Origin: Escherichia coli
GTDB taxonomy: Bacteria; Pseudomonadota; Gammaproteobacteria; Enterobacterales; Enterobacteriaceae
Length of the DNA: 64,000 bases
Assembly (NCBI RefSeq): GCF_003334815.1
Contig: NZ_QOWO01000004.1
Strand: one strand, 5' to 3'
Shown here: piece by piece, positions 1 through 33,934 of the stretch
Layout: every line of letters begins with the position of its first letter
How positions within the stretch are numbered: position 1 is the first letter of the stretch
Program-made: the position numbers and the translations under genes
Notes under the pieces: model-generated
Seen by the model: only the letters and a program-made list of their open reading frames with translations
What the model was told of the DNA's origin: nothing
Databases searched by the model: none

Positions 1-646
1 TGTGCATCATGACAATATCAGGTATAATATAAGATTGTAATCCCATCTTCTTCGCGCGTTCGCACCATTCGATATCAACGAAATCTATAAACAACTCCTC
101 ATCCATAAGCCCGATTTTTTGCAGTACCTCCATTCGAATCAAGCTCCCTGAAGAAATTAGAAAATCTGTTTCAAGTGGATGAACACTATGACACAGCTTG
201 ATTTTATAAAATGGTCTAATATGAATTGCACCTGTTATCTTTCCAGTTTTTTCATCCTTAAAGGCCGGACCTAAAACAGCAACTTGTTTTCCACTATTTA
301 GAAGTACACGCTCATTAATTAGCAATGTTTTAATCATTTCTTCCGGAACGATACTGTCTTGATCCAAAAATAAAATATGAGATGCTTTCGATTTTTTGGC
401 ATAATGAATTCCAATGTTCTGAGCTTTTGCAATGCCTAGATTGTAATTTAGTCGATAATGTTCAATTTTTTCTCCATACGACTCAAACTCAGAATCAGGT
501 ATTTTTAAATTAGACTCATCTGTGTTGTCGATAAGAATAACCTTGTCTACTTGCATAATTATACTTTTCAGTAATCCATGTATGCGTACAATTTCAGGTC
601 TGAAAAGGACCACTACTGCAATAATACATTTATCTTGTTCTGTCAT
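1..646 (-). CDS. Glycosyltransferase family 2, rhamnosyltransferase-like (O-antigen cluster); 3' end beyond window, ATG at 646..644
   Basis: Manual reverse-strand translation from the ATG at 646 gives MTEQDKCIIAVVVLFRPEIV...LIDNTDES...FLDQDSIVP, a GT2-type fold signature. GAGGT RBS directly upstream. Not in the ORF track because it runs off the window edge. Confidence 0.7.
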   Translation of the reverse strand, partial: MTEQDKCIIAVVVLFRPEIVRIHGLLKSIIMQVDKVILIDNTDESNLKIPDSEFESYGEKIEHYRLNYNLGIAKAQNIGIHYAKKSKASHILFLDQDSIVPEEMIKTLLINERVLLNSGKQVAVLGPAFKDEKTGKITGAIHIRPFYKIKLCHSVHPLETDFLISSGSLIRMEVLQKIGLMDEELFIDFVDIEWCERAKKMGLQSYIIPDIVMMH

Positions 647-651
647 GTTTT

Positions 652-1762
652 ACCTCAGGGCAAGGTTACTAAAGCCCGCGCCCCGCAAGGACTGACGCGA
701 GCTAGTCTCTGCCATAGATGTTCTTCTCATCTTACGTGTAAACTCTGTCTTAGATACTTTATGCTTCTTCAAAATATTAAGGCGATATGTCTTATGAATT
801 ATGCCTGGATATAATTCTTATGCATTTCCTCTTCTTATTTTGCTGTCATCTTCATTCATTGCCACATCCAGACACCAGTGCAACTTACTCTCTTGGTGCC
901 AGTGGTTTCGAATCGCTGATATAATATCTGACCGTCATTTCTGGCTCCTTCTTTTGTTCTGCTATTTTTTACCGAAAGTAGTCTGCCACGCAAAATTTTT
1001 TCAGTCCTTTTCATTCAAATGTGAAATCAATAATTTCATTAGGAATATCTAAACAATATGAAGACGGATTTTTTCTCTGTCGCGACTCTTTCAGTAATTA
1101 CGTAACTGTCATGCTTTGGATTACTTAATTCTTTCAGAAGAAAATTTACTCAAAGGCTTTATTAATCCGCCCCTGATTTCCTTTTACTGCGAATAAATAA
1201 TCGACTCCCTGTTTTTGTATCTTTTCTGCAAAATCATTCTGGCACCCCAGCGCATCAGTTGTAATAATTTTTTTTAATATCTAAATGTTAATTAGTTGAG
1301 GGATAGCTGTAATCTCAGTGGATTTCTCATCTGTCTTGATCTGTCAGAGAACAAGACTGAGCATTGTTGAGAACGCTCTAATGACATGAATCGCTTCTTT
1401 GCGGCGAGTTTTTTCATAAGAGTACCGGAGCGTTTTTCGAACTATAGCAATGACGTCTTTTTCATTTGACGAATGGAAATCCCTCATCCAGTTAATAATG
1501 CACTCGTGAAATTTTGCAGGAGTGATACATGATACAATTCTGGCAATGGTAACGAGAACAGGAATACCATTTTCTAAATCACTATATTACTTAAAAAAAC
1601 AAAATATGTCTCACCAAATCCTCTATATCTTCCGAACCTTCTGTACCAAAAATGACGACACAAATAGTCAACAGTAGTATATATGACAATTTATGTTTCC
1701 CTTTTCAGGCTTGTCTGTAATCGGGGATAATAGAAATATATTCCATCAATTTTTAGTACCAT
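652..1762 (-). mobile_element. ISAs1-family (H-repeat-associated) transposase pseudogene, about full length but with multiple stops and frameshifts
   Basis: Reverse-strand translation gives [61 protein letters not shown] and [29 protein letters not shown], matching remembered E. coli H-repeat proteins (YhhI/YdcC type: DTIARVVSCISPAKFHEC...DVIAIDGKTLR...). Reading frame is broken repeatedly; no minus-strand ORF of 60 aa or more in the track here. Confidence 0.7.
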
Positions 1763-1995
1763 TCTGCTCCCCTTATTTTAGCAAGAAGCATTTAAATATA
1801 TATAAGCTATGAAAAACAGTTTAAGTAATGAGGAACACCTCAATTATTGAGCATAAAATGCGAACTATTTACTACAAAAAAGCAGCGTTACGTGATCTTT
1901 CCCTGGGAGACGAACCATTATTTTTTCTATCGGAACTATAATCTTTAATATTTCAGAAAATAAGTTAATAGTCACAATAAGCCTTATATAATATA

Positions 1996-3069
1996 TCAAT
2001 TTTCAAATTCCGTATTGGCACCTTTAAAAATATTTATCAATATTACTTTGGATTCTTCGGTTTGAGATTGAAAATGTGCCAGCACTCTATAATTATTCTC
2101 AACTTTTGTGTATAATTCTTCCATTTTAAGAGGACTACAAAGCTCATCAACTTTAATAAATGAATAGCCTAACGAATTGAAATCACCTATATCAGGAGAT
2201 TTAACAACAGGAACAACACCACATTCAAGGTATTCAATTAATTTTGTCGGGCAGGCAACTCTATTTACAACTATGTCATCTCTTAAAACAAACCCCAAAT
2301 GACATTTAGCCATAACGTTAATTACATCCTCTTTTGGCAATGAATCAACTATTATATCAGTAGCATTAAAACAATTTGCAATTCTACTCTTGAATTCATA
2401 AGTTGAATTTTGTGGGAGAAAAAAATTGAATTTGATATTTTTATTATATGTCCGTTTACTTTCCTCTATCATCAAATCAATATTTTGCCAAGCTTGCATG
2501 CCGCCTGCATAAATGAATTCAAACATATTTGAATTCCATTTGTTCTGATCTACATGGATCTTGTTCTTTTCAAAAATCGGCAATACGATAGATCTTTTGT
2601 CCAAACAGATATGGTATTTATCTTCATAAAACTTTTTCATTGATGAAGTAACATGTATTAATTTAAAACACTTTTGTATTGACATCCTCTCGATTATGTT
2701 ATAAACGAATGCATTTGCTCTTTTACCAAGGAAAATCATTTCCTCAGGAACTACCCCGTGTATATCGAGAATGATCTTTTTATAATCACCAAAAGGAAAA
2801 ATTTTCAACATATTATATACTGAGTGAACATATATTATTGTAGCTTTCTTTAAATATTTAGTTATCGTTAGATTATGTAGAAAATAATTTAGGCTCTCTA
2901 CTTTGCAATTATCGTAAACAGAGATTTTTCTTTTTTTATTTTTTTTAAATGATATATTTAAATAAACCCTCTCCTCATTTTTTGTCAAAGAATCTATTGC
3001 AGCAATTCTTTGAAACATACCATCACGAACATTCTCTGCTGTCGGAAAATCTGCTATAAACAAAATCAT
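1996..3069 (-). CDS. Glycosyltransferase (GT4-like), O-antigen cluster
   Basis: 357 aa ORF; C-terminal CPTKLIEYLECGVVPVV resembles the GT1/GT4 donor-binding motif. Very AT-rich, located inside the rfb cluster. Confidence 0.65.
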   Translation of the reverse strand: MILFIADFPTAENVRDGMFQRIAAIDSLTKNEERVYLNISFKKNKKRKISVYDNCKVESLNYFLHNLTITKYLKKATIIYVHSVYNMLKIFPFGDYKKIILDIHGVVPEEMIFLGKRANAFVYNIIERMSIQKCFKLIHVTSSMKKFYEDKYHICLDKRSIVLPIFEKNKIHVDQNKWNSNMFEFIYAGGMQAWQNIDLMIEESKRTYNKNIKFNFFLPQNSTYEFKSRIANCFNATDIIVDSLPKEDVINVMAKCHLGFVLRDDIVVNRVACPTKLIEYLECGVVPVVKSPDIGDFNSLGYSFIKVDELCSPLKMEELYTKVENNYRVLAHFQSQTEESKVILINIFKGANTEFEN

Positions 3070-3134
3070 ATTACACCACTAATCATATTTCAATGCATTT
3101 ATTAAAATTGCTGATGATATTAATAATCAAAATA

Positions 3135-4271
3135 TTATTTGTTTAAATTATACCAATCAGCCATTATATCTATTATTCGTTTAGATGTTTGACCATCACC
3201 GTATGGATTAGAAGCAGTTGACATTTTTTCATATGCGCCTTTATCGGTCAGCAATAGGTCTAATTCATTAAATATTTTATTTTTATCAGTACCTACTAGT
3301 CTGACCGTACCAGCTGCAACAGCTTCCGGTCGCTCTGTAGTGTTTCTTGTAACTAGTACAGGTTTTCCTAAAGATGGTGCTTCTTCTTGTATACCACCGG
3401 AATCAGTCACAATGATATATGCCTTGTCCATTAAATAAACGAATTGCAAATACTCTAATGGTTCGATAAGGTAGATATTACTTATGCCGCTTAGTATGTC
3501 TTTTACCGGTTTCCGAACTGACGGATTAAGATGTACCGGATACACAAAATTATAATCTTTGAATTTCAATGCTGCGTCACGAATTGCGAAACATATATTA
3601 TCAAAACCAATCCCAAAGTTTTCTCTTCTATGACCTGTTATTAATACAATTCCATTAGCTTTGACATCGAATGGTAGAGTTTTCGCTATTTGTATCTGTA
3701 ATTCTGGCCGTGAACGGATTTTGCTAACAATTGCCATAAGTGCATCAATAACCGTATTACCGACAATATGAATATTTTGTTCAGCTACATTTTCTTTTAA
3801 CAAATTTAATTTTGAGGTCTCTGTTGGAGCAAAGTGCAAATCAGTGATAGCCGCCGTAAGTTTACGATTCCCTTCTTCTGGCCAAGGCGAGTATAAGTCT
3901 CCAGTACGGAGACCTGCTTCTACATGACCGATGCTTACTTGATTATAATATGCAGCAAGGGACGCAGCTAAAGTAGTTGTGGTATCCCCATGAACAAGAA
4001 TCATATCGGGTTTATCTGCTGAAAAGATCACATTTAGCTTGTATAAGATAATGCTAGTCAGCGATACAAGTGTTTGTCCCGGCTTCATTACATTTAAATC
4101 GTAGTCCGGTTTAATTTGGAAAAGTTCTAAAACTTGATCGAGCATTTCACGGTGCTGGCCCGTCACACAAACCTTGCAGCAAAATCTATTATCGCCCTTT
4201 AATTTTTCTATTAAGGGAGCCATTTTTATTGCTTCTGGTCGAGTACCAAATATTAAAAATATCTTTTTCAT
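3135..4271 (-). CDS. UDP-N-acetylglucosamine 2-epimerase (WecB/MnaA family)
   Basis: 378 aa; MKKIFLIFGTRPEAIKMAPLI N-terminus and overall length are typical of non-hydrolysing UDP-GlcNAc 2-epimerases. Confidence 0.9.
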   Translation of the reverse strand: MKKIFLIFGTRPEAIKMAPLIEKLKGDNRFCCKVCVTGQHREMLDQVLELFQIKPDYDLNVMKPGQTLVSLTSIILYKLNVIFSADKPDMILVHGDTTTTLAASLAAYYNQVSIGHVEAGLRTGDLYSPWPEEGNRKLTAAITDLHFAPTETSKLNLLKENVAEQNIHIVGNTVIDALMAIVSKIRSRPELQIQIAKTLPFDVKANGIVLITGHRRENFGIGFDNICFAIRDAALKFKDYNFVYPVHLNPSVRKPVKDILSGISNIYLIEPLEYLQFVYLMDKAYIIVTDSGGIQEEAPSLGKPVLVTRNTTERPEAVAAGTVRLVGTDKNKIFNELDLLLTDKGAYEKMSTASNPYGDGQTSKRIIDIMADWYNLNK

Positions 4272-4282
4272 GTTGAATTTCT

Positions 4283-5560
4283 TTAAATAAGATGTTGATT
4301 TTTGACTTTACTTATATTACTTAGCAACAGTATGCATAAAAGTAGTTCTCCACTTGATATTGCTACCGCTGCACCATAGCCATTATATAAACCGGCAAGT
4401 AATAAAAGAAAAATTACCGTAAAAATAGCAGAATAAATGATACTGCAACTATACATTTTGGCACAACCTGCAGCACTCAGGATTTGAATACCAAGAACAT
4501 TATTTAGAACGCCAAGACACATCCATGGAGCCAATAAGAAGGCAAAAGCCAGAGTTTCTTGTGGTAAATTTACTCTAGGATATATGATCCACCATGCAAG
4601 TATAAAAATCAAACTCACGATCAGACCTAATAGAACTAAGGGACGTCCAGTGCGGATAGCTGACGACATGCCGACATCAAATGATTCCTTAAACTTCCTA
4701 CAACTATGCGGATAAAGTGACTGCGTCAATGGCGAAAATAATGAAACTATAGCTTTAGCTATTCGCTCTACGACTGCATAAATACCTACAACAGATGGTG
4801 TATGGTATATACCAAGAATAAAAACAGCACTGTTTGTTAGCAGTGTTGAGGCAAGTGTTGCTAAAAAATAATCCCATCCTTCCTTAAGGGATACCATCAT
4901 AAATTTTATAGTAGGTAGCATAAAATTTATATATTTTTTTTGAATGATATATATATTAGCATAAACTCCACCAATAAGCACTGGAAACGCTTGGGATAAA
5001 ATAGCAGTACTAATATCACTTTCATTACGAACGAAATATAATACACAGATACATGAGATTATTCGAGATAATATATTAATGACAGCAACTATTTTTAGTT
5101 TTTCTATCCCCTGATAGAACCATAAAGGGTACATCGAATTAGAAAATGCCCATATGAAGGCACTTACAATTATCGTATAATAATTGCTATCATTAACAAA
5201 GACCCTGCATACAATATCTATAATACTAAATAGCAGAAATGTTAAAACAAATTTAACAAAATTAATTGCATAGTATATACGTGATATTTGACAAATATTA
5301 TCTCTACTTTGAGATATAGCTCGACTGGCACTGTAAGCAAATCCATAATCAATGACAACCTGGAAATACGCCATCAATACCAATGCAAATGCATATTTAC
5401 CAAAGCCATCAATGCCCAAGGTTGTTATAAGATGACCTAGCACGATAATTGGTGAAAGATACGCAACACCTTGTGTGCAAAGTAAATATCCAGCATTATA
5501 TATTACATTTTTGTATTCTTTATTTATCAACAAAGAAACCTCTTGCTTAATTTTACTCAC
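4283..5560 (-). CDS. wzx: O-antigen flippase Wzx
   Basis: 425 aa, highly hydrophobic polytopic membrane protein immediately downstream of rmlC; position and composition typical of Wzx. Confidence 0.85.
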   Translation of the reverse strand: MSKIKQEVSLLINKEYKNVIYNAGYLLCTQGVAYLSPIIVLGHLITTLGIDGFGKYAFALVLMAYFQVVIDYGFAYSASRAISQSRDNICQISRIYYAINFVKFVLTFLLFSIIDIVCRVFVNDSNYYTIIVSAFIWAFSNSMYPLWFYQGIEKLKIVAVINILSRIISCICVLYFVRNESDISTAILSQAFPVLIGGVYANIYIIQKKYINFMLPTIKFMMVSLKEGWDYFLATLASTLLTNSAVFILGIYHTPSVVGIYAVVERIAKAIVSLFSPLTQSLYPHSCRKFKESFDVGMSSAIRTGRPLVLLGLIVSLIFILAWWIIYPRVNLPQETLAFAFLLAPWMCLGVLNNVLGIQILSAAGCAKMYSCSIIYSAIFTVIFLLLLAGLYNGYGAAVAISSGELLLCILLLSNISKVKNQHLI

Positions 5561-6090
5561 CTGTAAAGAAATGGTTGCTTAGAGTCTTTCTCTGATACAA
5601 TAGGCTCATTAATTAGTGGCCAATCTATTTTTATATCTGGATCATGCCAGGCCAAACCACGATCACTGGTTGGAGCATAATAATTCGTCGTCTTATACAA
5701 AAACTCTGCCGTTTCACTCAGCACCAAAAACCCATGCGCAAATCCTTCTGGTATCCACAACTGGCGCTTATTCTCAGCAGATAAATTCACCCCAACCCAT
5801 TTGCCAAAAGTTGGTGACGATTTACGAATATCAACCGCTACGTCAAAAACTTCACCAACAACGCAGCGCACCAACTTTCCTTGTGCATAAGGTTCTAACT
5901 GATAATGCAGTCCGCGTAAAACACCTTTACAAGACTTCGAATGGTTATCCTGGACAAATTCAACTTTGCGGCCTACAGCTTCCTCAAAAACCTTCTGGTT
6001 AAAGCTCTCGAAAAAGAAACCGCGCTCGTCACCAAAAACTTTCGGTTCGAAAATTAATACGTCTGGAATCTCTGTTTTAATTACGTTCAT
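5557..6090 (-). CDS. rfbC: dTDP-4-dehydrorhamnose 3,5-epimerase
   Basis: 177 aa; MNVIKTEIPDVLIFEPKVFGDERGFF is the RmlC signature; 4-bp overlap with wzx. Confidence 0.95.
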   Translation of the reverse strand: MNVIKTEIPDVLIFEPKVFGDERGFFFESFNQKVFEEAVGRKVEFVQDNHSKSCKGVLRGLHYQLEPYAQGKLVRCVVGEVFDVAVDIRKSSPTFGKWVGVNLSAENKRQLWIPEGFAHGFLVLSETAEFLYKTTNYYAPTSDRGLAWHDPDIKIDWPLINEPIVSEKDSKQPFLYR

Positions 6091-6094
6091 TTTA

Positions 6095-6973
6095 TTAATA
6101 ACCTTTAATCATTTTTAGCAGGTACTGACCATAAGCATTTTTCTTCAACGGTTCAGCTAATATTTTCACCTGCTCAGCATTGATAAACCCTTTACGGTAA
6201 GCAATTTCTTCTGGACAGGAAACTTTCAACCCTTGACGCTCTTCAATTGTAGCAATGAAGTTGCTTGCCTCAATCAGGCTTTGATGTGTCCCCGTGTCTA
6301 ACCATGCATATCCACGTCCCATCATGGCAACAGATAAACGCCCTTGTTCCATGTAGATACGGTTAATATCGGTAATTTCCAGTTCACCGCGGGCAGAAGG
6401 CTTAAGATTTTTCGCCATTTCTACAACGTCGTTATCATAGAAATAAAGCCCAGTTACCGCATAATTACTTTTTGGCTGTAGCGGTTTTTCTTCCAGGCTA
6501 ATTGCCGTACCGTTTTTATCAAACTCAACGACACCATAGCGTTCAGGATCATTAACGTGATAGGCAAACACCGTTGCACCACTTTCTTTGTTAACAGCGG
6601 CATCCATTAACTTCGGCAGATCGTGACCGTAAAAAATATTATCACCAAGAACCAAAGCACAATCATCACCACCGATAAATTCTTCACCGATGATAAATGC
6701 TTGCGCAAGACCATCTGGACTTGGTTGCACTTTGTACTGAAGATTCAGGCCCCACTGGCTCCCGTCACCCAACAGTTGTTGAAAACGAGGAGTATCCTGT
6801 GGCGTACTTATAATTAGAATATCGCGAATACCCGCCAACATCAGTGTAGAGAGCGGATAATAGATCATCGGTTTATCATAAATAGGTAATAGCTGTTTAC
6901 TGACAGCCATAGTCACAGGATAAAGACGTGTACCAGAACCACCCGCTAAAATAATACCTTTACGCGTTTTCAT
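6095..6973 (-). CDS. rfbA: Glucose-1-phosphate thymidylyltransferase
   Basis: 292 aa; [16 protein letters not shown] nucleotidyltransferase motif; synteny rmlBDAC. Confidence 0.95.
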
Positions 6974-7030
6974 TCCATCATTCCTTTTAATTCATCTTGT
7001 TCCACCATCACGAACAAGATACAAAAACTA

Positions 7031-7930
7031 TTAAATTGCTGTAGTCGTAAATAATTCGTTGAGCATGCGTTTCACACCAACCTGCCAGTCAGGCAAAACA
7101 AGCGCAAAGTTCTGCTGAAATTTTTCTGTATTAAGGCGAGAGTTATGCGGACGACGAGCTGGTGTAGGATAGGCTGTTGTTGATACTGCGTTGAGCTTGT
7201 TGAGTGCAAGGGGAATGCCTGCTTTGCGCGCCTCTTCAAAAACCAGCGCAGCATAATCGTGCCAGGTTGTGGTACCACTGGCTACCAGATGGTACAAGCC
7301 TGCGACTTCTGGTTTATTCAGTGCCACACGAATTGCATGTGCCGTACAATCAGCCAGCAGTTCAGCACCTGTTGGCGCACCAAACTGATCATTAATAACG
7401 GCTAATTCTTCACGCTCTTTTGCCAGACGCAACATCGTTTTGGCGAAGTTATTTCCTTTACCTGCATAGACCCAGCTGGTACGGAAAATTAGGTGCTTCG
7501 CACAATGCTCTTGTAATGCTTTTTCTCCAGCTAACTTGGTTTCACCGTAAACATTTAGCGGTGCGGTTGCATCCGCCTCCTGCCATGGTATTTCACCGGT
7601 CCCCGGAAATACGTAGTCAGTTGAGTAATGAATTACCCAGGCCCCAACTTCATTAGCCGCTTTTGCAATTGATTCAACGCTGGTCGCATTGAGTAATTGT
7701 GCAAATTCGGGTTCTGACTCAGCCTTATCTACTGCGGTATGAGCCGCAGCATTAACAATAACATCAGGGCGAATTTTTTTGACGGTTTCAGCTACACCTT
7801 CAGGATTACTAAAATCACCACAATAATCAGTGGAGTGAACATCAAGAGCAATCAAATTACCCAAAGGTGCCAGAGCACGCTGTAGTTCCCAACCGACCTG
7901 CCCTGTTTTGCCGAAAAGGAGAATATTCAT
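7031..7930 (-). CDS. rfbD: dTDP-4-dehydrorhamnose reductase
   Basis: 299 aa; [21 protein letters not shown]-terminus typical of RmlD. Confidence 0.95.
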   Translation of the reverse strand: MNILLFGKTGQVGWELQRALAPLGNLIALDVHSTDYCGDFSNPEGVAETVKKIRPDVIVNAAAHTAVDKAESEPEFAQLLNATSVESIAKAANEVGAWVIHYSTDYVFPGTGEIPWQEADATAPLNVYGETKLAGEKALQEHCAKHLIFRTSWVYAGKGNNFAKTMLRLAKEREELAVINDQFGAPTGAELLADCTAHAIRVALNKPEVAGLYHLVASGTTTWHDYAALVFEEARKAGIPLALNKLNAVSTTAYPTPARRPHNSRLNTEKFQQNFALVLPDWQVGVKRMLNELFTTTAI

Positions 7931-9015
7931 TACTGGCGGCCCTCATAGTTCTGTTCAATCCACGATTGATAAGCACCACTTTTCACATTATCAACCCATT
8001 TTGTATTGGACAGGTACCATTCCACCGTTTTACGAATCCCGCTCTCAAACGTTTCCTGCGGTTTCCAGCCCAATTCGCGGCTAATCTTCTCTGCATCAAT
8101 CGCATAACGGCGATCGTGTCCCGGGCGATCGGCAACATAAGTAATTTGCTCACGGTAAGATTTCTCTTTCGGTACAATCTCATCCAACAAATCACAAATA
8201 GTGAGCACTACATCGATGTTTTTCTTTTCGTTGTGTCCACCAATGTTATAAGTTTCACCCGCTTTACCTTCGGTTACGACGATATATAACGCACGCGCAT
8301 GATCTTCAACATACAGCCAGTCACGAATTTGATCCCCTTTGCCATAAATAGGTAATGCCTTACCTTCCAGAGCATTAAGAATTACTAGTGGAATCAATTT
8401 TTCCGGAAAGTGATAAGGACCGTAGTTATTCGAACAGTTAGTCACAATGGTCGGTAAACCATAGGTACGTTTCCACGCACGGACTAAATGATCGCTGGAT
8501 GCTTTTGATGCGGAATAAGGACTACTAGGCGCGTAAGCTGTCGTCTCAGTAAAGAGGGGTAATTGTTCTTTATTATTTACTTCGTCAGGATGAGGCAGAT
8601 CGCCATAGACTTCGTCAGTAGAAATATGATGAAAACGGAAGCTATTTTTCTTGTCGCCATCAAGAGCAGACCAGTAATTGCGAGCCGCTTCCAAAAGGAC
8701 ATAAGTACCAACAATATTGGTTTCAATAAATGCCGCAGGGCCTGTAATTGAACGATCCACATGGCTTTCAGCAGCCAGGTGCATCACTGCATCCGGCTGA
8801 TGCTGAGCAAAAATCCGCGCCATTGCAGCAGCATCGCAAATATCCGCATGTTCAAAAACATAGCGTTCAGAATCAGAAACATCAGCAAGTGATTCCAGGT
8901 TTCCGGCGTACGTTAATTTATCGACATTAACAACACTATCCTGCGTATTATTTATAATGTGACGAACTACTGCAGAACCAATAAATCCTGCGCCACCAGT
9001 AACAAGTATCTTCAC
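7930..9015 (-). CDS. rfbB: dTDP-glucose 4,6-dehydratase
   Basis: 361 aa; [20 protein letters not shown]ossmann N-terminus; first gene of the rfb operon. Confidence 0.95.
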
Positions 9016-9083
9016 TTTTTTATTCCATATTACTTCAGAGCATGCTGTGAAATTAGCGGCTCTTAGTTTGATTAATAGAGGTA

Positions 9084-9125
9084 TTAATGCACGCTACCGC
9101 CCCTGGCTTTACAGCTACCAGAGCA
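9084..9125 (-). promoter_or_regulatory. JUMPstart element with ops (RfaH antitermination site) upstream of rfbB
   Basis: Forward cacgctaccgcc at 9090..9101 is the reverse complement of ops GGCGGTAGCGTG; the same 30-nt motif recurs upstream of wza at 33630. Confidence 0.8.
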
Positions 9126-9386
9126 CTGCATGCATGCCTACGATGTAGCGAGCGTTACCCACTCGCGCTTAACCCGAAAAATTCAAACGCTAATTGTCTT
9201 ACCAATTCGCCCTGGAAACAAGGAAAATCCTGGAAAACTTTGACTAAAATCCTATTGCTAACTCGTTGTTATTCTGATTGTTTATATAAAACAACGGCAG
9301 GAATATTCGCAACAAATTACTTTCGCCACGAATCTTCACTGCCGTTATAATTTTCTTATCAACCGTTACATCCGGTCAGATTTTCA

Positions 9387-10280
9387 TTATTCGCTTAACA
9401 GTTTCTCAATACCTTTACGGAACTTCGCCCCTTCTTTCAGGTTGCGTAGTCCATACTTCACAAATGCCTGCATATAGCCCATTTTTTTACCGCAGTCGTA
9501 GCTGTCACCAGTCATCAGCATTGCATCAACAGACTGTTTTTTCGCCAGTTCGGCAATGGCATCTGTCAGTTGGATACGTCCCCATGCACCTGGCTGAGTG
9601 CGTTCAAGTTCCGGCCAAATATCTGCAGAAAGCACATAGCGACCAACGGCCATGATGTCTGAGTCCAGCGTCTGCGGCTGATCCGGTTTTTCGATAAATT
9701 CAACAATGCGGCTGACTTTACCTTCACGATCCAGTGGTTCTTTGGTCTGAATAACGGAGTATTCAGAGAGGTCACCCGGCATACGTTTTGCCAGCACCTG
9801 GCTACGGCCCGTTTCATTGAAACGCGCAATCATGGCAGCAAGGTTGTAACGCAGCGGATCGGCACTGGCGTCGTCGATCACAACGTCTGGCAGCACCACG
9901 ACAAATGGGTTGTCACCAATGGCGGGTCGTGCACACAAAATGGAGTGACCTAAACCTAAAGGTTCGCCCTGACGTACGTTCATAATGGTCACGCCCGGCG
10001 GGCAGATGGACTGAACTTCCGCCAGTAGTTGACGCTTCACGCGCAGTTCAAGAAGAGATTCTAATTCATAAGAGGTGTCGAAGTGGTTTTCGACCGCGTT
10101 CTTGGACGCGTGAGTTACCAGGAGGATTTCTTTGATACCTGCAGCCACAATCTCGTCAACAATGTACTGAATCATTGGCTTGTCGACGATCGGTAGCATC
10201 TCTTTGGGAATCGCCTTAGTGGCAGGCAACATATGCATCCCAAGACCCGCTACAGGAATAACTGCTTTTAAATTCGTCAT
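9387..10280 (-). CDS. galF: UTP-glucose-1-phosphate uridylyltransferase subunit GalF
   Basis: ORF track gives 301 aa from 10292; conserved start [22 protein letters not shown] at 10280 gives 297 aa; GalU/GalF family. Confidence 0.95.
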
Positions 10281-10454
10281 TATTTCATCCACCTGTAAAA
10301 TGGTTGCTGAATTATAGCTTGTTCGATTTTTTTCGCCAGCATCAATTACCCTGAATTGATTACTGAATTACTTGTGATGTTACGCCGCTTCGTTGTGGAT
10401 TGCAGTAGCATTGTTCCTAAGTATGGCTCCATTTTTCCAGGAATGGTCGCAAAT

Positions 10455-11849
10455 CTACTCCCTCCGTTCCGGCAATCTAAAGTTAATCTTTTCCACATTA
10501 ACAATATGGTGATTAATCCTGTCGATATCGACGGAGCTTTGCCCTCTTTCATTCACCGCATGAACATTTGCAAGAGACAGCAGTGTTTCTTTTTTCGCCA
10601 TAAAGACGCCGCGAACGTCTTTGCGCATGTCGAAGTTCATGCTCAATGCGGGACCAACTGAGGATTCCTGCATCACTTTGATATTACGCATAAAAAGATG
10701 TTGCGGTTTATTGTGAAGCTCCAGCGAGGCACGCTTCATCTCAATGTTAGTCAGTGCCACAAAGGAGGCAGCATTCCCGGCGGAGATTTGGATGCCGCGC
10801 AATTTATAAGCAAGATGGGTGTTATCCAGTTGAATATTATTCACTCGGAAATTTTGCGGTATCGAGAGATATTTGCCTTTAATTACCCCATAGCCGATTA
10901 ACATCCCGGCGCTATTAATCATTTCAATATTATCAATCACGAAATTGTCACAACCATAAATAGCGACTGTGGCGTTATCTATGCCTGCTTTCTTACTGAA
11001 ATCCGGCGTGATATTGCGGGCTTTGATATTACGGATAACAAAATGTTTGCCATTTTCAACATGGATCAACTGCCGACAATCCGATCCCGTGATATTTGCC
11101 ACGACAAAGTTTTTCACTGCCTGGTCTTCCGGGTAGTTATTATCATAAGTACTCCCCGCAAGGCCTATGCCAATGCCCCAGTTGATTTTGCCATTAGTAC
11201 AGTTGATGCGCTCGATGACATGGTCGGAGATCAAAATATCACGGTCGTTAATCGCCACGTTCCATTCAATGGCGTCGCCCTGTAAATCACTAAATTTACA
11301 GTTGGTGATGTTGGCACCGATAATCTGGTTATGAAATCCCTGGCGTAAGATGGCGTAATTAGCGTGGCTGACAGTGAGGTTATCGATGGTCAGGTTGCGC
11401 ATGACCCGTTTGTTTTTGCCGCCGATATAAATCTGCGTTACCGGACCAAAGCCGCTCATCGCCAGCCCTTTGATGGTGCAGTCAGAACCACGCACATCCA
11501 GGGTGATGTTATGCATACTGCCGCCCTCCTCCCCTGTCACCTGGCTGCCGTCCTGTAAGACAAATCGCCCTCTGCCGTTGCCGCGCAGGCTTCCAAGGAT
11601 GTGTAACGTTTTACCTGCAGGAATGAAGATGCCGGTGTTGATATTGTCACAAACGAATCCGGCAGGCACGACGACCGTATGCCCTTCGCTGAAGGCTTGT
11701 TTAAATGAGGCGATCCAGTCGTGTGGGTTGTAGTCGTTAATGTTAACGCTTTGTCTGGCGCGAAGTGCGCGAGCGAAAGGGGTATGGAGGAAGGCAAGCG
11801 CGGAGCTTGCCGTCAGGAAGGTGCGTCGGGAGAGTTTTTTAAATGGCAT
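10455..11849 (-). CDS. wcaM: Colanic acid biosynthesis protein WcaM
   Basis: 464 aa with twin-arginine-like signal ([15 protein letters not shown]); last gene of the colanic-acid cluster by synteny. Confidence 0.85.
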
Positions 11850-11859
11850 GCGTTCTCCT

Positions 11860-13080
11860 CTATAAAGCCTGCAACAAGCTGGCGAGTTCCCGATTAATCA
11901 CCTGCTGGTTAAAATCGTGTTCGACTTTTTCGCGAGCACGTTTGACAACCGGAGCCAGTTCGTCGGTGTCCAGTTGGCTAAACGCCGCCAGTCGTTGCGC
12001 CAGTGCGCGAGCATCGTTCTCAGGCACCAGCCAGCCGGATTTATCGGCCTCCACCAGTTCCGGTATTCCGCTATGCAGAGTAGAAACCACCGGAATGCCG
12101 ACCGCCATCGCTTCCATCAGCGCCACCGGAATGCCTTCCATATCGCCATCCGCGCCCGTTACCGATGGCAACAGGAAGACATCCGCGTCGTCGAGCATCG
12201 CTTTCACTTCGTGGCTCGGTTTAAAGCCCGGCATCTCTACCACATCTTCCAGTTGATATTGTTCGATGAGGGTACGCAGGCGTCGTTCCCACGGGCCAAT
12301 GCCGAGGATGCGATAGCGAAATGCCACGCCCTGCTCTTTCAGCTGACGGCAGGCTTCAATCGCCACATGCAGGCCTTTTTTCTCGGTTAAGCGTGCGACA
12401 GATATGATTTCCAGCGGCGTTGCGGGCGCTTTCACCGGACGCGGGCTAAAGCGCGTCATGTCCACGCCCATGCGCGATACGGCGATTTTTTCCCTCGGGC
12501 AGCCCATTTTTTGCAGCCTTCCGGCCCACAGATCGCTTATCGGTAGCATCAGGTCGCCACGGCGAAACAGTTGTTGATATTCGGGGGTGTAGTGGTTGAG
12601 CACTTCCCGACTGGAGATATCAATGCCGTGGAAAATGGTGGCAATTTTGCCGCGAATGACACCCAGTTCCCGTAGTTTTGCTGCGGTTACCCCCGCAGGG
12701 CCAAAATGAGCGATGAACACATCGGCATGAAACGGTGTTGCGACCTGGCCGCAAATGGCAGACAAAATCAGGTTCCGCGACTCGGCACCATAGCGTTTGA
12801 GGTTGAGCGCCTGCCAAGTATTTTTACGATGAATGCCGCGTAACGTCTGGCTGGCGCGGTGGCGCAGCTTCGCCACTTTGCCCGTAGGTTCGTCCTGTAA
12901 CCAATGGGTTCTGGCGGCAAGGTTATATTTCGTCCATGCCGCGTGGGTGTTTTGTGTGTCGCCTTTTTGCAGCGCGACAATCTCTACCTCAAATCCCATA
13001 TCAATAAACGCGGTAATTTGGTTGAGAACGAAGGTTTCCGACGACAGCGGAAATTTCAGTAAAAAGAAGCCGACCTTCAT
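11860..13080 (-). CDS. wcaL: Colanic acid glycosyltransferase WcaL
   Basis: 406 aa GT4-like protein; synteny. Confidence 0.9.
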
Positions 13081-14357
13081 TTCGCCTCCCCGATGCGCTC
13101 AAGCACAGACTGCACCATCTGCATTCCCGTCTGACGCTCACGACTGACGGCTTCACTAAGTCGCGCGTTCAGCGCCGGAAGCTGGCCCAAGGTATCCGCA
13201 ACCATCACTTGCAGGCTGCCGTCTAATAAATGACGGATATCAATCGCCATATCTGGTAGCCCCAACTGCTGCATAATTCCGGCGGATTTATGCTCATAGT
13301 TGATGGCAATTGCCGGAGTGGCAAAGTTCATTGAGATAATGGCGGAGTGCAGGCGCGTACCGACGGTGAGTTCACAGGCACCGAGAATTTTGCCCATTTC
13401 CAGATCGTTGAGTTCATCCATCACTACGTGGTAACGGGCAGGCTCGCTGATGTGCTGGCGCAGATTGAGCGCCACCATGCGGTCGTCTTTGTTATAGCTG
13501 TCGATACCCGTACAGGTGGAGAGCGCAATCACCTGATACCCTTCATCGAGAATGCGATTGACCACCCCGGCAAAGGCTTTTTCATACGCTTGTTGAGTGG
13601 TGCCGAGACGTTTGTCGAACGGTGCCAGTTCGCGCAGGGTAATGGCCACCGTTTTCTGTTGTGCGGCAACGTCCAGCCAGTGTTGAACGGCATAGCTGGC
13701 GGTGAAATCTTCGGTGTGGTGATCGACCAGCCACGCGGTATCGACGCCATGTTCCACTTTTGCGGTGGTGATATTGCTGTGTTTCATCAGATCAAGGCTG
13801 ACCGATTCGCGCAGGATCAGCGCGTCGCAGTGACCAAAAACGTAGTTCGCCAGTTGGTTAAATTGCTCATCCTGGAAGGGGCCAACACTGTGACCAATCA
13901 TAAACAGCGGCTTTTTCGCCATAAACGTGCAAAGCGCATGTTCAAACTGCGGCACGCCGTAGAGATCGACAAAAAACGATCCGCCGACCTGGATAATGGC
14001 GTCGTAACCTGACAGCAGGCGCACGAAGTCGGTGAATCCCTGGGCGATGGCGATATTACGCAGCTTGCCAGTGTCGGTGACGCGTGAGAGCAATACCTGA
14101 TGCTGGTAGCGGCGACGGAGGACTTTTTTAACGCGCCCGACAACGCCCGCCGCGCTGTTGTGTTGTTTCATTTGCAGGAACAGCGGATCGCCCATTACCG
14201 GGCGGTTGAGCAGCCAGGAAGAACTGACCGGATAGCGGCTCATGACGTCCACTTCGGCATGTGGATTGAGGATGTTGATGGCATCAAGTAAGCCGCGCAA
14301 GATGGCGCTGTCGCCGCGATTGCCGCAAGTGTGGTTGCCCAGAATAAGTAATTTCAT
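13077..14357 (-). CDS. wcaK: Colanic acid pyruvyl transferase WcaK
   Basis: 426 aa; synteny between wzxC and wcaL. Confidence 0.9.
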   Translation of the reverse strand: MKLLILGNHTCGNRGDSAILRGLLDAINILNPHAEVDVMSRYPVSSSWLLNRPVMGDPLFLQMKQHNSAAGVVGRVKKVLRRRYQHQVLLSRVTDTGKLRNIAIAQGFTDFVRLLSGYDAIIQVGGSFFVDLYGVPQFEHALCTFMAKKPLFMIGHSVGPFQDEQFNQLANYVFGHCDALILRESVSLDLMKHSNITTAKVEHGVDTAWLVDHHTEDFTASYAVQHWLDVAAQQKTVAITLRELAPFDKRLGTTQQAYEKAFAGVVNRILDEGYQVIALSTCTGIDSYNKDDRMVALNLRQHISEPARYHVVMDELNDLEMGKILGACELTVGTRLHSAIISMNFATPAIAINYEHKSAGIMQQLGLPDMAIDIRHLLDGSLQVMVADTLGQLPALNARLSEAVSRERQTGMQMVQSVLERIGEAK

Positions 14358-14417
14358 TTTTTCCTCATAAATTTGATGCCAGGTGAGGCTGTGTTTGTTG
14401 TGTTCATTGCCGTTTTT

Positions 14418-14612
14418 TGCCTGATGCGACGCTGGCGCGTCTTATCAGGCCTACAAGACCCGAGCACAGAACCGTAGACCGGATAAGGCGTTCACGCCGC
14501 ATCCGGCATTCAGTGCCTGATGCGACGCTGACGCGTCTTATCAGGCCTACAGGTCCCGAGCACAGAACCGTAGGATGGATAAGGCGTTTTACGCCGCATC
14601 CGGCAACCGTTG
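14418..14612. repeat. REP/BIME cluster (tandem palindromic units) between wcaK and wzxC
   Basis: Two copies of an approx 100-bp unit each containing gcctgatgcgacgctg(g/a)cgcgtcttatcaggcctac and ccggataaggcgtt(c/t)acgccgcatccgg. Confidence 0.85.
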
Positions 14613-14632
14613 TCGGAACCGAAAACAGCAAC

Positions 14633-16111
14633 TCACCCCGCCCGTAAAAGCATTTTCATTTTTTCGCTGCGACAAAACTGACGCTTCACTTCCACCACCA
14701 GCGGATGGCGCGACAGCACAATCATCACCACAAACGCCAGAACGCCCGCGGCTATTTGCACCGCCAGCAGCATCCCCAGCGCCAGTTGCCCTTTCAGCAC
14801 AATGCCCAGCGCATAACTGACCACCAGCGTCGGCAGCGAGAGATAAAACGGCAGCCATAAACTCAGGATGTACTGGCGATAACTGGAACCAAGAACCGGT
14901 TTAATCATCACGAAGTAACTCAGAATGGTGTTGATAATCTGTACCAACAGGAAGCCGAGCGTGACGCCAATTGCGCCCGCCATCTGCCCACCTATAACAA
15001 TCGCCGGAATAAACAGAAAGGTTTTGAATACGTTGAATTTAAAGCTGATATCGACCCGCGCTTTCGCCATCAGCAGCGAACCAATCGGGTTACCTACGGA
15101 ACGCAGCAGACCCACCACACACAGCAATTGCAGCACCGGAATAATGCTGTTCCACTTCTCACCAAAGACCAGCGGTACAAAGTTATTCGACACCACCATC
15201 AGCCCCAGCAGCGCCGGAAAGTTGATAATCCCAACTACCGACAGCAGCTTGTAGAAGTTAACGCGCAGCTTTTCGGTGTCGTCCTGAATTTTGGCAAACG
15301 CCGGAAACAACACGCGGGTGATGATCGGGTTCAGCTTCATCGGCGGCACAACGGCCACGTTGTAAGCCAGGTTGTAGCCCCCTGCCACGCCCGCGCCGAG
15401 AATACGCGCCAGCACCAGCGTTGAAAGGTTGGTATTGAGATAGTTGATGATGCTGTCCGCCGTCAGCCAGGCACCAAAGCGTAAGTTCGGTGCCACCGAC
15501 GCCAGCGAGAAATGCAGACCGGGGCGATAAATTTTGCGGCCAAAGTAGCCAAACAGCAGCGTTCTCACCGCACTATTGACCAGATAACCGAGGATCGCGG
15601 TCATCGCCAGCGGCCAGAAATGGGCGCTAACCACCGTAAAAGTGAAGCCCGCCAGTACCGCGCTGGTTTCGATCATGCCGATTTTGTTGAACTCCAGCTC
15701 CTTTTGCATCAACGCGCGGAACTGCTGCCCCTGGGGGATCACCACAAACGCCAGCGACAATGTTTTAATCAACGGTGCCAGGTCCGGGTTATTCAGCACG
15801 TCGCCGATGAGATCACTCAACAAAAACACCGCCAGACACACCACAAGCCCCAGCCCGACGTTCAGCCAGTACAGCGTGGTGAGTTCAAGGTGGCTGATTT
15901 CTTTTCGCTGAATAATCGAGTTAGCGATACCGAAGTCAGAAAGCGTATCTGCCAGCGCGATGATCACCAGCGACACGGTAAGCAAACCGAACTGGTGGTT
16001 GTCGATAATCCGCGCCAGCACGGTCATCTGCACCAGCCCGAGGCCGATGATGATCACCGTGGCAACCGCCGACCACTTCGCGCCGCTGATGGTTTTTTCA
16101 CGTAAGCTCAT
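14633..16111 (-). CDS. wzxC: Colanic acid flippase WzxC
   Basis: 492 aa polytopic membrane protein; synteny. Confidence 0.9.
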   Translation of the reverse strand: MSLREKTISGAKWSAVATVIIIGLGLVQMTVLARIIDNHQFGLLTVSLVIIALADTLSDFGIANSIIQRKEISHLELTTLYWLNVGLGLVVCLAVFLLSDLIGDVLNNPDLAPLIKTLSLAFVVIPQGQQFRALMQKELEFNKIGMIETSAVLAGFTFTVVSAHFWPLAMTAILGYLVNSAVRTLLFGYFGRKIYRPGLHFSLASVAPNLRFGAWLTADSIINYLNTNLSTLVLARILGAGVAGGYNLAYNVAVVPPMKLNPIITRVLFPAFAKIQDDTEKLRVNFYKLLSVVGIINFPALLGLMVVSNNFVPLVFGEKWNSIIPVLQLLCVVGLLRSVGNPIGSLLMAKARVDISFKFNVFKTFLFIPAIVIGGQMAGAIGVTLGFLLVQIINTILSYFVMIKPVLGSSYRQYILSLWLPFYLSLPTLVVSYALGIVLKGQLALGMLLAVQIAAGVLAFVVMIVLSRHPLVVEVKRQFCRSEKMKMLLRAG

Positions 16112-16112
16112 A

Positions 16113-17507
16113 TCAATATGCCGCTTTGTTAACGAAACCTTTGAACACCGTCAGGAAAACGATTTTGATATCGAACCAGACGCTCCATTCGCGGATGTAC
16201 TCAAGGTCGAACTCGACGCGTTTTTCCATTTTCTCCAGCGTGTCGGTTTCGCCGCGCCAGCCGTTAATCTGCGCCCAGCCGGTAATGCCCGGTTTCACTT
16301 TATGGCGCAGCATGTAGCCTTCAATGAGCTGGCGATACTGTTCGTTATGCGCTACTGCGTGCGGACGTGGACCGACAATCGACATCCCCCCGGTCAGCAC
16401 ATTGATAAACTGCGGTAATTCGTCCAGCGAGGTGCGGCGCAGAAAGTTCCCCACTTTAGTGACGCGCGGATCGTTCTGCGTCGCCTGGGTCACCACTTTG
16501 TCGTTCTCCATCACTTTCATGGAACGGAACTTCCACACTTTGATCGGCTTGCCATCCATGCCGTAGCGAGTCTGGCGGAAAATAACCGGCCCTGGTGAAC
16601 TGAGTTTTACCGCCAGCGCAATACAGCACAGCACCGGGGAGATCAGCAGCAAGATCAGCGTCGCCAGCACAATGTCTTCCGCACGTTTTAGCAGGCGGTT
16701 AACCCCGGAAAGCGGCGTGTCATACAGCGGCACCACCGGAACGCCGTTCATCTCTTCGAGACGTGAATGGAGAATATTGAAGGTAAAGACATCGGGGATC
16801 AGCAGCACCGAACAGGTGGTGTCCGCCAGTTGATGGACCAGTTTTTTCACTCGCGCGCCGTCGCACATTTGCATCGCGATATAGACGTTATGAATCTTGC
16901 CCGCTTTAGCATCCTCGACCAGCTGTTGCAGATTGCCCGCCCAGTCGTTAGAAACGCCGCCCGGTTTCGGGTCGTGGTAAACGCCCACCACTTCAAACCC
17001 TAACCACGGCTGATTACGGAAGCTCTCCATCAGCATTTGTCCGGCGGCTAAATCCCCCGCCACCGCGACCATGCGCTTGTTATAGCCATGATTACGCAGC
17101 CAGCCCGCCCCAATGCGAATACATGAACGGCAAACCACCAGTCCGATACTGGTCAGCCCATACCACGCCAGCCAGATTTTCAGTTGCGTGTCGAAATCAT
17201 TGTTGAACGCCACCAGTCCGGCGCTGAAAATCACGCTTAAGGTCCAGTTTTGTAGCAACAGGGCAAATTCTGTCGCTGCCCGAACACCGCGCCATGAGCG
17301 ATAAAAATCGGTGATGCCGCCCAGCATCTGGAACACCACCAGCGTAATCAACGCCACCAACAGGTGCATGTAGAGGAATGACAGTCCGCTCACTTCGCAA
17401 ACCAGCCATAGTCCGGCAAACATGATGGTGATATCTGAAAAGCGTTGCACCATAGAGATTAACGATGCATTGGTTTTCGCTCGCTCGCGCTTTTTTAGAT
17501 TTGTCAT
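16113..17507 (-). CDS. wcaJ: UDP-glucose:undecaprenyl-phosphate glucose-1-phosphate transferase WcaJ
   Basis: 464 aa; C-terminal sugar transferase domain (PRPHAVAHNEQY...); synteny. Confidence 0.9.
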   Translation of the reverse strand: MTNLKKRERAKTNASLISMVQRFSDITIMFAGLWLVCEVSGLSFLYMHLLVALITLVVFQMLGGITDFYRSWRGVRAATEFALLLQNWTLSVIFSAGLVAFNNDFDTQLKIWLAWYGLTSIGLVVCRSCIRIGAGWLRNHGYNKRMVAVAGDLAAGQMLMESFRNQPWLGFEVVGVYHDPKPGGVSNDWAGNLQQLVEDAKAGKIHNVYIAMQMCDGARVKKLVHQLADTTCSVLLIPDVFTFNILHSRLEEMNGVPVVPLYDTPLSGVNRLLKRAEDIVLATLILLLISPVLCCIALAVKLSSPGPVIFRQTRYGMDGKPIKVWKFRSMKVMENDKVVTQATQNDPRVTKVGNFLRRTSLDELPQFINVLTGGMSIVGPRPHAVAHNEQYRQLIEGYMLRHKVKPGITGWAQINGWRGETDTLEKMEKRVEFDLEYIREWSVWFDIKIVFLTVFKGFVNKAAY

Positions 17508-17529
17508 CGTTGTTCCTGTTCTATTGTCG

Positions 17530-17632
17530 CCTCGCCCCTCACCCCGGCCCTCTCCCCAAAGGGGCGAGGGGGAGAAGAAAGTTCCGTGCTCACTTCTCTC
17601 CGCAGGCAGTAGAGCGTCAGGGTGAGGGGGAA
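17530..17632. repeat. GC-rich palindromic intergenic element between wcaJ and cpsG
   Basis: ctcgcccctcaccc ... ggggcgaggggg inverted repeat, plus a further ggtgaggggg copy; resembles E. coli intergenic GC-rich repeats, family not assigned. Confidence 0.35.
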
Positions 17633-17642
17633 AGTAATGACA

Positions 17643-19013
17643 TTACTCGTTCAGCAACGTCAGCAGAGTTCGCGTTCGCGCTTCCATCAGCGGTACATCA
17701 CCGCGCGATTCCACATTCAACCGCACCACCGGTTCGGTGTTGGAGGAGCGCAGGTTAAAGCGCCAGTCGGCAAAGGTCATGCTGATACCATCGGTGCGAT
17801 CCACCGCCAGCGCCTCACGGCTAAAGTGCTGTTCCACGCGGTTAATCGCCTCAACGGGTTGCGCCAGTTTGCTGTTGATCTCACCGCTTGCCGGAAACGC
17901 CGCCATCCGGTCGCGCACCAGTTCGCCCAGCGTTTTTCCTTTCAGGCACACCAGTTCGGCGACCAGCAGCCATGGGATCATGCCGCTGTCGCAGTAAGCG
18001 AAATCACGGAAGTAATGGTGGGCGCTCATTTCGCCACCGTAGATGGCGTCTTCCTTGCGCATACGTTCTTTAATAAAGGCGTGTCCGGTTTTCGACATTA
18101 CCGGGGTGCCGCCTGCGGCAGTCACCACATCAACGGTATTCCAGGAGAGACGAGGATCGTGGATGATCTTCGCGCCGGGATTTTTTTCGAGGAACGCTTC
18201 TGCCAGCAGGCCGACAATGTAGTAGCCCTCAATAAACTGCCCTTTTTCGTCAAACAGGAAGCAGCGGTCAAAATCGCCATCAAAGGCAATGCCCATATCC
18301 GCGCCGTGTTTGATGACCGCATTGCGGGTGTCGTCGCGGCATTCCGGCAGTAGTGGGTTAGGAATACCGTTGGGGAAATTGCCGTCCGGCGTGTTGTGCA
18401 CTTTGATTAATTCCACGGGTGCGCCGAGGGCTTTAAAGCGGGCTTCAATGGCGTCCACCACCGGACCCGCTGCGCCGTTCCCGGAGTTGATCACCAGCTT
18501 GAGCGGCGTGAGGTTTTTGACGTTGATATAACCGAACAGGTGATCAACGTAAGCGTCACGCAGGTTGATTTGCTGATAGCGACCGCGTTTGGTTTCATCG
18601 ACGGGAGGAAAGTCGTTGGCTTCAGCCAGACGCTGGACGTCGCGCAGTCCGGTATCTCCGCTGATCGGGCGAGCCCCCTCGCGAACCAGCTTCATGCCGT
18701 TATAATCCATCGGATTATGGCTGGCGGTAACTTCAATGCCGCCATCCACGCCGAGATGGAACGTGGCGAAATAGATCTCTTCGGTGCCGGACATACCAAT
18801 ATCCAGCACGTCAACGCCCGCATCCTGTAAACCTTTTGCCAGCGCCAGTTTTAAGGTTTCGCTGGTGAGACGGACATCACCGCCTAACACAATGGTTTTC
18901 GGTTTGAGAAATTCGCCATAAGCGCGACCAATGCGCCAGGCAATATCTTCATTCAATTCTTCGCCTAATTTCCCGCGAATATCATAGGCTTTAAAGCAGG
19001 TTAATTTTTTCAT
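17643..19013 (-). CDS. cpsG: Phosphomannomutase
   Basis: ORF track 472 aa; conserved start [15 protein letters not shown] at 19013 gives 456 aa; TASHNP active-site motif present. Confidence 0.95.
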
Positions 19014-19102
19014 ATCGTTACCCTTTTTCAGGCAATAGTTGGCCCTGACCGAAGCGGCCAATTTTATTTTTGTCGTTATTTACACCGCGGTTTCGCATTC
19101 AT

Positions 19103-19204
<102 letters not shown>

Positions 19205-19205
19205 T

Positions 19206-20642: not shown

Positions 20643-20644
20643 AA

Positions 20645-33626: not shown

Positions 33627-33662
33627 AGACACGCTACCGCCCCTGGCTTTTTAGCTACCAAT
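33627..33662 (-). promoter_or_regulatory. JUMPstart/ops element in the wza leader
   Basis: cacgctaccgcccctggcttt..agctacca, near-identical to the element at 9090; ops = reverse complement of 33630..33641. Confidence 0.8.
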
Positions 33663-33934
33663 ACACTGATTTAGCTTAATTTTTCAAACCCTCTCTGCAT
33701 ACAATCGTTGATGAGAAAGGGTTATTGCGGAAATTAACTTCCGAATATAAGGTGACATTATGGTAATTGAATATTGGCTCTCCAATAATGCAGGAGGAAG
33801 TGTTACAGCTAACGGAATAGCAGGCAAGGTAACAATTCGGCAATTGGCTATTTTTAAGAATTATATTAAGTGTCATTCAATATGGTTTTTAGGAGTTTCT
33901 TTAGGTTGACAATATTTAATATTGCGTCTCCACA

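Follow-up and report, generated by a model that had tools for sequence, protein, structure and literature searches.

The classical example of an H-repeat lying at a junction between O-antigen gene clusters comes from Salmonella enterica group D2, where a remnant H-repeat is found at the D1/E junction (Xiang et al. 1994, reviewed in PMC3715488); according to the model outlined in the review's treatment of this group, H-repeat-mediated replicative transposition was followed by homologous resolution. In E. coli, Iguchi et al. (2015) reported, for groups Gp14-16, O-antigen clusters whose right-hand part had been replaced in association with an IS. A further point of comparison is strain A47, the O1 “non-A” reference strain, which agglutinates as O1 and whose cluster was published as a mosaic of seven 5' genes akin to those of an O1 variant, four O10-related genes (wzy among them), and a wekS related to O2 (Delannoy et al. 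2017, PMC5293828); an IS appears neither in the text nor in the annotation table of that article.

We describe here a dead ISAs1 element sitting at the junction of an O1-nonA-like and an O10-like module in a cluster of the A47 type. In our reading, the two modules were probably joined by the IS, as modelled for Salmonella D2, after which the IS decayed and came to be read through. RefSeq annotation covers the relic already, and the mosaic has been published; our additions are modest, namely a base-level placement of both breakpoints at the IS termini, a second relic, and the contiguity of wekS with an IS fragment in O10.

An A47-Type O-Antigen Cluster

The window, i.e., the whole stretch of 64,000 nucleotides of E. 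coli DNA analysed here, starts inside a GT2 gene; all the genes of the region are on the minus strand (galF-to-gnd direction), and what follows GT2 in the window comprises rmlBDAC, galF, and the colanic-acid cluster, on to yegS. The first 17.5 kb are 99.7% identical to E. coli LR-21-1 (NZ_AP027487), window position x corresponding to position x + 11401 of the LR-21-1 sequence. The cluster is that of strain A47: gene order, gene sizes, and an unannotated gap of 1,349 bp between a 921-bp GT2 gene (orf6 of A47) and a 1,074-bp gene (orf7) match exactly. The published account of A47 (PMC5293828) differs from ours in that it describes neither a relic in this gap nor a second ISAs1 fragment before wekS. 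The coordinates of the features discussed below are collected in Table 1.

The gene on the upstream side of the gap, which codes for a putative glycosyltransferase of 357 aa, shares 87.1% amino-acid identity with its O1-nonA homologue. Its Pfam matches are marginal (Glycos_transf_1, E = 0.03; Glyco_transf_4, E = 0.29), and no NCBIfam family was found for it; RefSeq labels it “hypothetical”, the A47 table “Glycosyl transferase family 2”. On the downstream side, the part of GT2 present in the window (215 aa) matches the rhamnosyltransferase profile TIGR01556 with E = 6e-55, and the full 306-aa protein of LR-21-1 is 90.8% identical to its O10 homologue. An initial annotation of this DNA had placed the relic between a GT4 gene and a terminal GT2 gene; the position is correct, while the “GT4” label is weak given the Pfam E-values above, and GT2 is terminal within the window but not in the full cluster, where wzy, two glycosyltransferase genes, an ISAs1 fragment, and wekS precede gnd.

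Table 1. Coordinates of the features of the window.
Feature	Coordinates	Strand	Remarks
GT2 gene, 5' part (rhamnosyltransferase-like)	1..646	-	Opens the O10-like module; runs past the window edge
GT2 translation start	644..656	-	SD GAGGT 656..652, 5-nt spacer, ATG 646..644; IS ends on the initial G of the SD
Residual 40-aa ORF	650..772	-	TAA 652..650, 3 nt before the GT2 ATG
ISAs1-family IS	656..1905	-	
Right terminal inverted repeat (...TTAGTAACCTTGCCCTG)	656..673	-	Final IS base G at 656, then O10-homologous DNA
Transposase frame remnant	666..1762	-	ATG 1762..1760; ancestral TAA 668..666, TAG 671..669 now ahead of it
Left terminal inverted repeat (CAGGGAAAGATCACGTAA...)	1888..1905	-	Against the reverse complement of the right end: 5/5 terminal bases, ~12-13 of the first 18
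Intergenic region, 357-aa gene to IS	1906..1995	-	1915..1971 homologous to the O1-nonA intergenic region
357-aa putative glycosyltransferase gene	1996..3069	-	Last gene of the O1-nonA-like module; A47 orf7
JUMPstart with ops (GGCGGTAGCGTG), O-antigen operon	9090..9128	-	Upstream of rfbB; Rfam RF01707, 60 bits for a gathering score of 35
algC motif	19018..19067	-	Rfam, gathering score
naRNA4	14477..14547	+	Rfam, gathering score
JUMPstart, colanic-acid operon	33630..33668	-	Rfam, gathering score
SIB RNA beside ibs toxins	49600..49748	+	Rfam, gathering score
CyaR	63867..63952	+	Rfam, gathering score

The Gap Holds a Full-Length but Decayed ISAs1 Element

Positions 656..1905, on the minus strand, form a full-length IS of the ISAs1 family (H-repeat/ISEc1-like) of 1,250 bp, in the orientation of the O-antigen genes. 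Its blastn alignment with the yhhI copy of ISEc1 (1,281 bp) covers the whole length, ISEc1 positions 1-1281 pairing with window positions 1906..655 (1063/1288 identities, E = 0); this amounts to 82.5% identity with gaps counted and to 85-86% over the aligned columns, for a length within the size range of ~1.2-1.3 kb. The frame-corrected translation matches the NCBIfam profile NF033564, “ISAs1 family transposase”, from end to end (positions 1-314 of 314) with 270.8 bits for a cut-off of 70, and three intact transposases align to the relic by tblastn with E-values of 1e-85 to 1e-87. The element is the single ISAs1 copy of the window. In eight near-identical genomes, PGAP labels it “ISAs1 family transposase; frameshifted; internal stop”, the annotated pseudogene being equivalent to window positions 669..1746. 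The range first proposed for the relic, 652..1762, is adequate for the transposase frame but not for the element, of which it omits the 143-bp untranslated 5' end.

The termini, placed from three intact copies, are CAGGG...CCCTG and are present at both ends of the relic; the terminal inverted repeats that the initial annotation had suggested looking for do exist, although imperfect, and are of the same pattern as those of ISEc1. The flanking direct repeats, also suggested, were not found at the relic: its flanks show no target-site duplication (TTCGTCTCC vs. AGGTAAAAC), and the three intact copies, equally uninformative in this respect, have no obvious one either. The missing duplication thus carries little diagnostic weight, while it fits a chimeric junction. 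Compared with ISEc1/H-rpt (yhhI, ydcC), a member of the ISAs1 family, the relic is collinear, has the same termini, and derives from a single transposase frame matching the ISAs1 profile; it differs by a divergence of 14-17%, by the absence of a functional ORF, and by belonging, at least partly, to an older sub-lineage common to other relics in O10 clusters.

We scored the decay against an intact transposase of 378 aa. The relic contains seven premature stops (third bases at 1705, 1587, 1344, 1011, 969, 818, and 702), to which is added the last transposase codon, now TAG, as well as at least 12 frameshifting indels of 1-2 bp, a 35-bp deletion near 919, and a 7-8-bp insertion near 803. After frame correction, amino-acid identity to the intact transposase is 265/379, and no gene-strand ORF longer than 52 aa is left within the relic, between the 357-aa gene and the GT2 start. 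Substitutions at codon positions 1, 2, and 3 are in the ratio 43:39:65, with 89 nonsynonymous vs. 40 synonymous codon changes, a pattern close to neutral; GC-to-AT changes outnumber AT-to-GC changes 2:1, and the GC content is 36% in the relic vs. 40% in intact copies.

One has to ask whether such damage could simply reflect sequencing or assembly error in an intact transposase, as might be suspected from a related assembly, that of strain G5, in which frameshifts extend across the whole cluster. The probability of this is negligible: the same relic is present, at 99.6-99.9% identity, in eight other, independent complete genomes from different hosts and countries and in one metagenome contig, which excludes a sequencing artefact, and read error cannot account for damage that includes a 35-bp deletion besides seven stops and at least 12 indels. 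Judged from its sequence, the element is an inactive relic, predicted to have no transposition function today. The blastn alignment, the NF033564 match, and the counts of stops and indels all agree with what had been read from the letters, a near full-length and heavily decayed ISAs1/H-repeat in the O-antigen cluster; the similarity to ISAs1 transposases is strong, and there is no uninterrupted transposase ORF.

As for strain G5 itself (NZ_CP060065), its A47-type cluster is 98.8-99% identical, with nearly all genes annotated as frameshifted and an IS5 in rfbD. These frameshifts are probably for the most part assembly error rather than biology, and the strain was excluded from the analysis over assembly quality.

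Both Homology Breakpoints Fall at the Termini of the Element

On the rml side, positions 13316-22000 of LR-21-1 are 91.5% identical to the O1-nonA cluster of CFSAN018748. This similarity extends from galF through the 357-aa gene and for a further 81 nt after its stop codon, ending at window position 1915, 9-10 nt from the left end of the IS; the nine nucleotides at the left junction, 1906..1914 (TTCGTCTCC), match neither parent. On the other side, similarity to the O10 clusters of strains TL20 and CX21 (~90%) extends from 7609 to 12056 of LR-21-1, the latter being window position 655, the first base beyond the IS. O10 homology therefore begins 0 nt from the right end of the IS and 9 nt ahead of the GT2 ATG; the junction reads ...CCCTG/AGGTAAAACATG in the window and ...AAAAT/AGGTAAAACATG at the empty site of O10.

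The left and right modules have different nearest relatives, O1-nonA for the former and O10 for the latter, with no cross-similarity. No ISAs1 sequence was found anywhere in the O1-nonA cluster, and the O10 clusters have at the junction site an uninterrupted intergenic region of 122 bp, without IS. As the breakpoints coincide with the IS termini and the relatives have no IS there, the relic marks a recombination junction; the old rearrangement proposed in the initial annotation is thereby borne out by the very comparison with rfb clusters that it had recommended.

Two side observations concern the O10 clusters. Their matches to the IS part of our query do not reflect an IS upstream of GT2 but come from a separate, intact ISAs1 located downstream of GT4. 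In CX21, moreover, the intergenic region upstream of GT2 contains the 10-mer GGTAAAACAT twice, at 14467..14458 and 14367..14358 of that locus, ~100 bp apart; the second copy overlaps the GT2 start, which is the exact point of the IS in the A47-type cluster, but this may be chance in AT-rich DNA.

The arrangement is close to that of Salmonella D2 as summarized in PMC3715488: in that account too, an ISAs1-family remnant lies between a 5' segment and a 3' segment (wzy and glycosyltransferase) from different serogroups, and the parents are described without an IS at the junction. The parents themselves differ, E. coli O1-nonA and O10 here, other species and clusters in D2. So does the divergence, as our modules are 9-10% diverged from their sampled relatives, whereas the summary has D2 almost identical to its parents; hence either the event took place earlier here, or the true donors are unsampled. 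In Gp14-16 (Iguchi et al. 2015), the IS is likewise at the boundary of the replaced 3' glycosyltransferase block, in other serogroups.

Origin and Age of the Junction

The joining of the two modules by the IS, which we infer from this arrangement, would have proceeded as follows. An active ISAs1 copy would have joined DNA from two parent clusters, for example by replicative transposition/cointegrate formation or by recombination between IS copies, so as to place an O1-nonA-like upstream module (rmlBDAC-wzx-mnaA-357-aa glycosyltransferase gene) next to an O10-like one (GT2-wzy-GT-GT4, and onward to gnd); the far side would have been resolved via homologous recombination near gnd, and the IS would afterwards have decayed neutrally. 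A search of 5,426 complete E. coli genomes, of one genome per species, and of JGI metagenomes yielded no parent in which an IS occupies either junction, so that the joining mechanism stays a model. The junction 20-mer TTGCCCTGAGGTAAAACATG, searched in one genome per species, gave one chance match of 20 nt, in Flavobacterium succinicans, with dissimilar flanks; in metagenome contigs, it gave one contig, which is simply the A47-type cluster at 99.6%.

It could be argued that the IS had no role in the joining, having either inserted in the ordinary way into an existing mosaic or sat near the crossover by coincidence. Indeed, ISAs1 is very common in E. coli, as elements matching window positions 600-2000 were detected by blastn in 5,072 of the 5,426 complete genomes, at a median of 4 places per genome; it is also recurrent in O-antigen clusters, with copies beside wekS in O10 and O2/O50, and, as intact copies have no obvious target duplication either, the absence of one here is no proof of chimerism. 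We still hold this explanation to be unlikely: both breakpoints are within 0-10 nt of the IS termini, the site has no IS in the O1-nonA or O10 relatives, and a later chance insertion falling exactly on the breakpoint in a cluster of ~15 kb is improbable.

The decay of the relic, calculated from codon positions 1+2, is ~0.12 substitutions/site, and divergence from the relatives at four-fold sites is K4 = 0.385 for module 1 and K4 = 0.238 for module 2; on this rough estimate, the decay is comparable in magnitude to half the K4 of the modules, which suggests that the scar is old and not recent. Derived bases are common to the relic and other old relics more often than expected by chance, and part of the 14-17% divergence from ISEc1 is thus a matter of sub-lineage and not of decay, which keeps the age rough.

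A Second ISAs1 Fragment Upstream of wekS

A second ISAs1 fragment, truncated at its 5' end and in the same orientation, is located ~3.8 kb beyond the window start, at 7324..7606 of LR-21-1 (NZ_AP027487), where PGAP names it a “hypothetical protein” pseudogene. It is made of IS positions 843-991 and 1143-1277 and lies 2 nt from the downstream end of the O10-like block, just upstream of wekS, a gene of the LTA-synthase family. The fragment and wekS correspond, as one contiguous stretch, to an old IS fragment followed by wekS in O10, with 90.9-92.9% identity; wekS is 91.6% identical to that of O10:H32 vs. 90.3% for the large O2/O50-type group. While wekS is tied to O2 in PMC5293828, wekS and the IS fragment are here at least as close to O10 (90.9-91.6%) as to the O2 type (90.3%). 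As both are contiguous in O10, deriving the cluster from two parents (O1-nonA x O10-like) is no less parsimonious than deriving it from three, and two may be sufficient for the A47-type mosaic.

ISAs1 copies, intact ones as well as older fragments, are also present directly upstream of wekS in other loci, at 8345..10002 in TL20, 7677..9253 in CX21, and 7771..10202 in a further locus (L011). “ISAs1 + wekS” looks like a recurrent 3'-terminal unit of a number of O-antigen clusters, O10 and O2/O50 among them.

The two relics of the cluster have 11 identical derived bases, for ~5 doubly derived columns expected, and the comparison points to a common old IS sub-lineage for these relics and the old O10 fragments. 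With an ISAs1 scar at each end, the O10-type cassette (GT2-wzy-GT-GT4) might be thought to have entered the O1-nonA cluster within a composite transposon, flanked on both sides by ISAs1 in direct orientation: the second fragment has the same orientation as the first and is separated by 2 nt from the opposite end of the cassette, and the derived bases common to both relics exceed chance. However, the wekS-gnd flank is not target-like, since in O10 and O2/O50 it adjoins that same old IS fragment; wekS is absent from O1-nonA; there is no flanking duplication; and the downstream copy has no 5' end. Since the DNA on the outer side of the downstream relic is of the donor type, this copy would have pre-existed in the donor arrangement, and we rejected the composite transposon on this ground, as very improbable. 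Joining at the upstream relic remains our preferred reading. It is possible, although we propose it tentatively, that both module boundaries of the A47 type are ISAs1 scars of one old sub-lineage, “ISAs1 + wekS” being a portable 3' unit common to O2/O50, O10, and A47.

Expression across the Relic

JUMPstart/ops recruits RfaH, which results in less termination and less polarity in long LPS operons. A single JUMPstart/ops was found for the O-antigen operon, the ops pattern itself matching at 9090..9101, and positions 1..9000 contain no Rfam family. Across the relic, promoter-like and terminator-like sites are not in excess over shuffled sequences; no promoter-like site was detected on the gene strand in the ~600 nt upstream of GT2, and a weak terminator-like hairpin is present on the gene strand at 1378..1359. 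With regard to Rho sites, the untranslated stretch of 1,349 nt has a C/G ratio of 0.79 and is not C-rich beside the neighbouring genes. The downstream genes are all intact, and their divergence at codon positions 1+2 is far below that at four-fold sites; by this measure they are under purifying selection. Strains that carry the cluster are, moreover, of serotype O1. The lack of a promoter signal, the single JUMPstart, and the constrained downstream genes argue together for read-through: the relic would be an untranslated spacer of 1.25 kb (1.35 kb for the whole gap), passively read through in an RfaH-dependent operon, and it is plausible that the downstream genes, GT2 included, depend on transcription coming from the JUMPstart region.

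At the GT2 start, the initial annotation had the stop codon of the transposase abutting the start and ribosome-binding site of GT2. A stop codon does lie a few bases before the ATG, but it is not that of the transposase, whose ancestral stop is ~20 nt upstream; it belongs to the residual 40-aa ORF, which a 1-bp deletion near 712-714 throws out of the ancestral frame and which ends outside the IS, in O10-derived DNA. The feature that abuts the SD of GT2 is the IS terminus.

Such proximity raises the question of whether the relic was co-opted, supplying a promoter, a better SD, or translational coupling through the 40-aa ORF that the O10-derived GT2-wzy genes would need. The IS-terminal G converts the TAGGT of O10 to GAGGT, the TAA of the residual ORF is only 3 nt from the GT2 ATG, and the relic is conserved at 99.6-99.9% in eight strains. 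This conservation, however, equals that of the flanking genes, which argues for the recent spread of one cluster and not for selection on the relic. The residual ORF begins with TTG, the promoter-like counts equal those of shuffles with no gene-strand site in the ~600 nt before GT2, and in O10 strains these genes are expressed although no IS is present. Co-option is therefore improbable in our view; GT2 keeps its native AGGT SD, the G added by the IS being a minor extension, probably incidental, and passive read-through is the reading that we retain.

Other Observations in the Window

Two segments of the window are absent from LR-21-1. The one at 47260..48044 (~785 bp) would code for a secreted-looking protein of ~150 aa (MKKILLMLSLLFFTTAGFS...), probably yegJ-like, and looks like ordinary strain-to-strain variation. 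The other, at 61552..62331 (~780 bp), has two small adjacent ORFs that, by eye, look like an antitoxin of the ParD type and a toxin of the ParE/RelE type.

Significance for O-Antigen Diversity and O-Typing

The scar is of an ordinary, well-known kind and implies no new mechanism or family. What it offers is a base-pair view of the assembly of one published mosaic O-antigen cluster, that of an O1 variant which matters for serotyping and for O-genotyping PCR, and an E. coli counterpart to the classical Salmonella D2 H-repeat junction; the 1.35-kb annotation “gap” of A47 is accounted for at the same time. O-typing schemes should expect, in a cluster of the A47 type, a wzx like that of the O1-nonA variant together with a wzy like that of O10. 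If the tentative proposal of one old sub-lineage at both boundaries were true, ISAs1 elements would be general module linkers in new E. coli O-antigen clusters, and the parents of A47 (O1 variant, O10, and O2) would be reduced from three to two.
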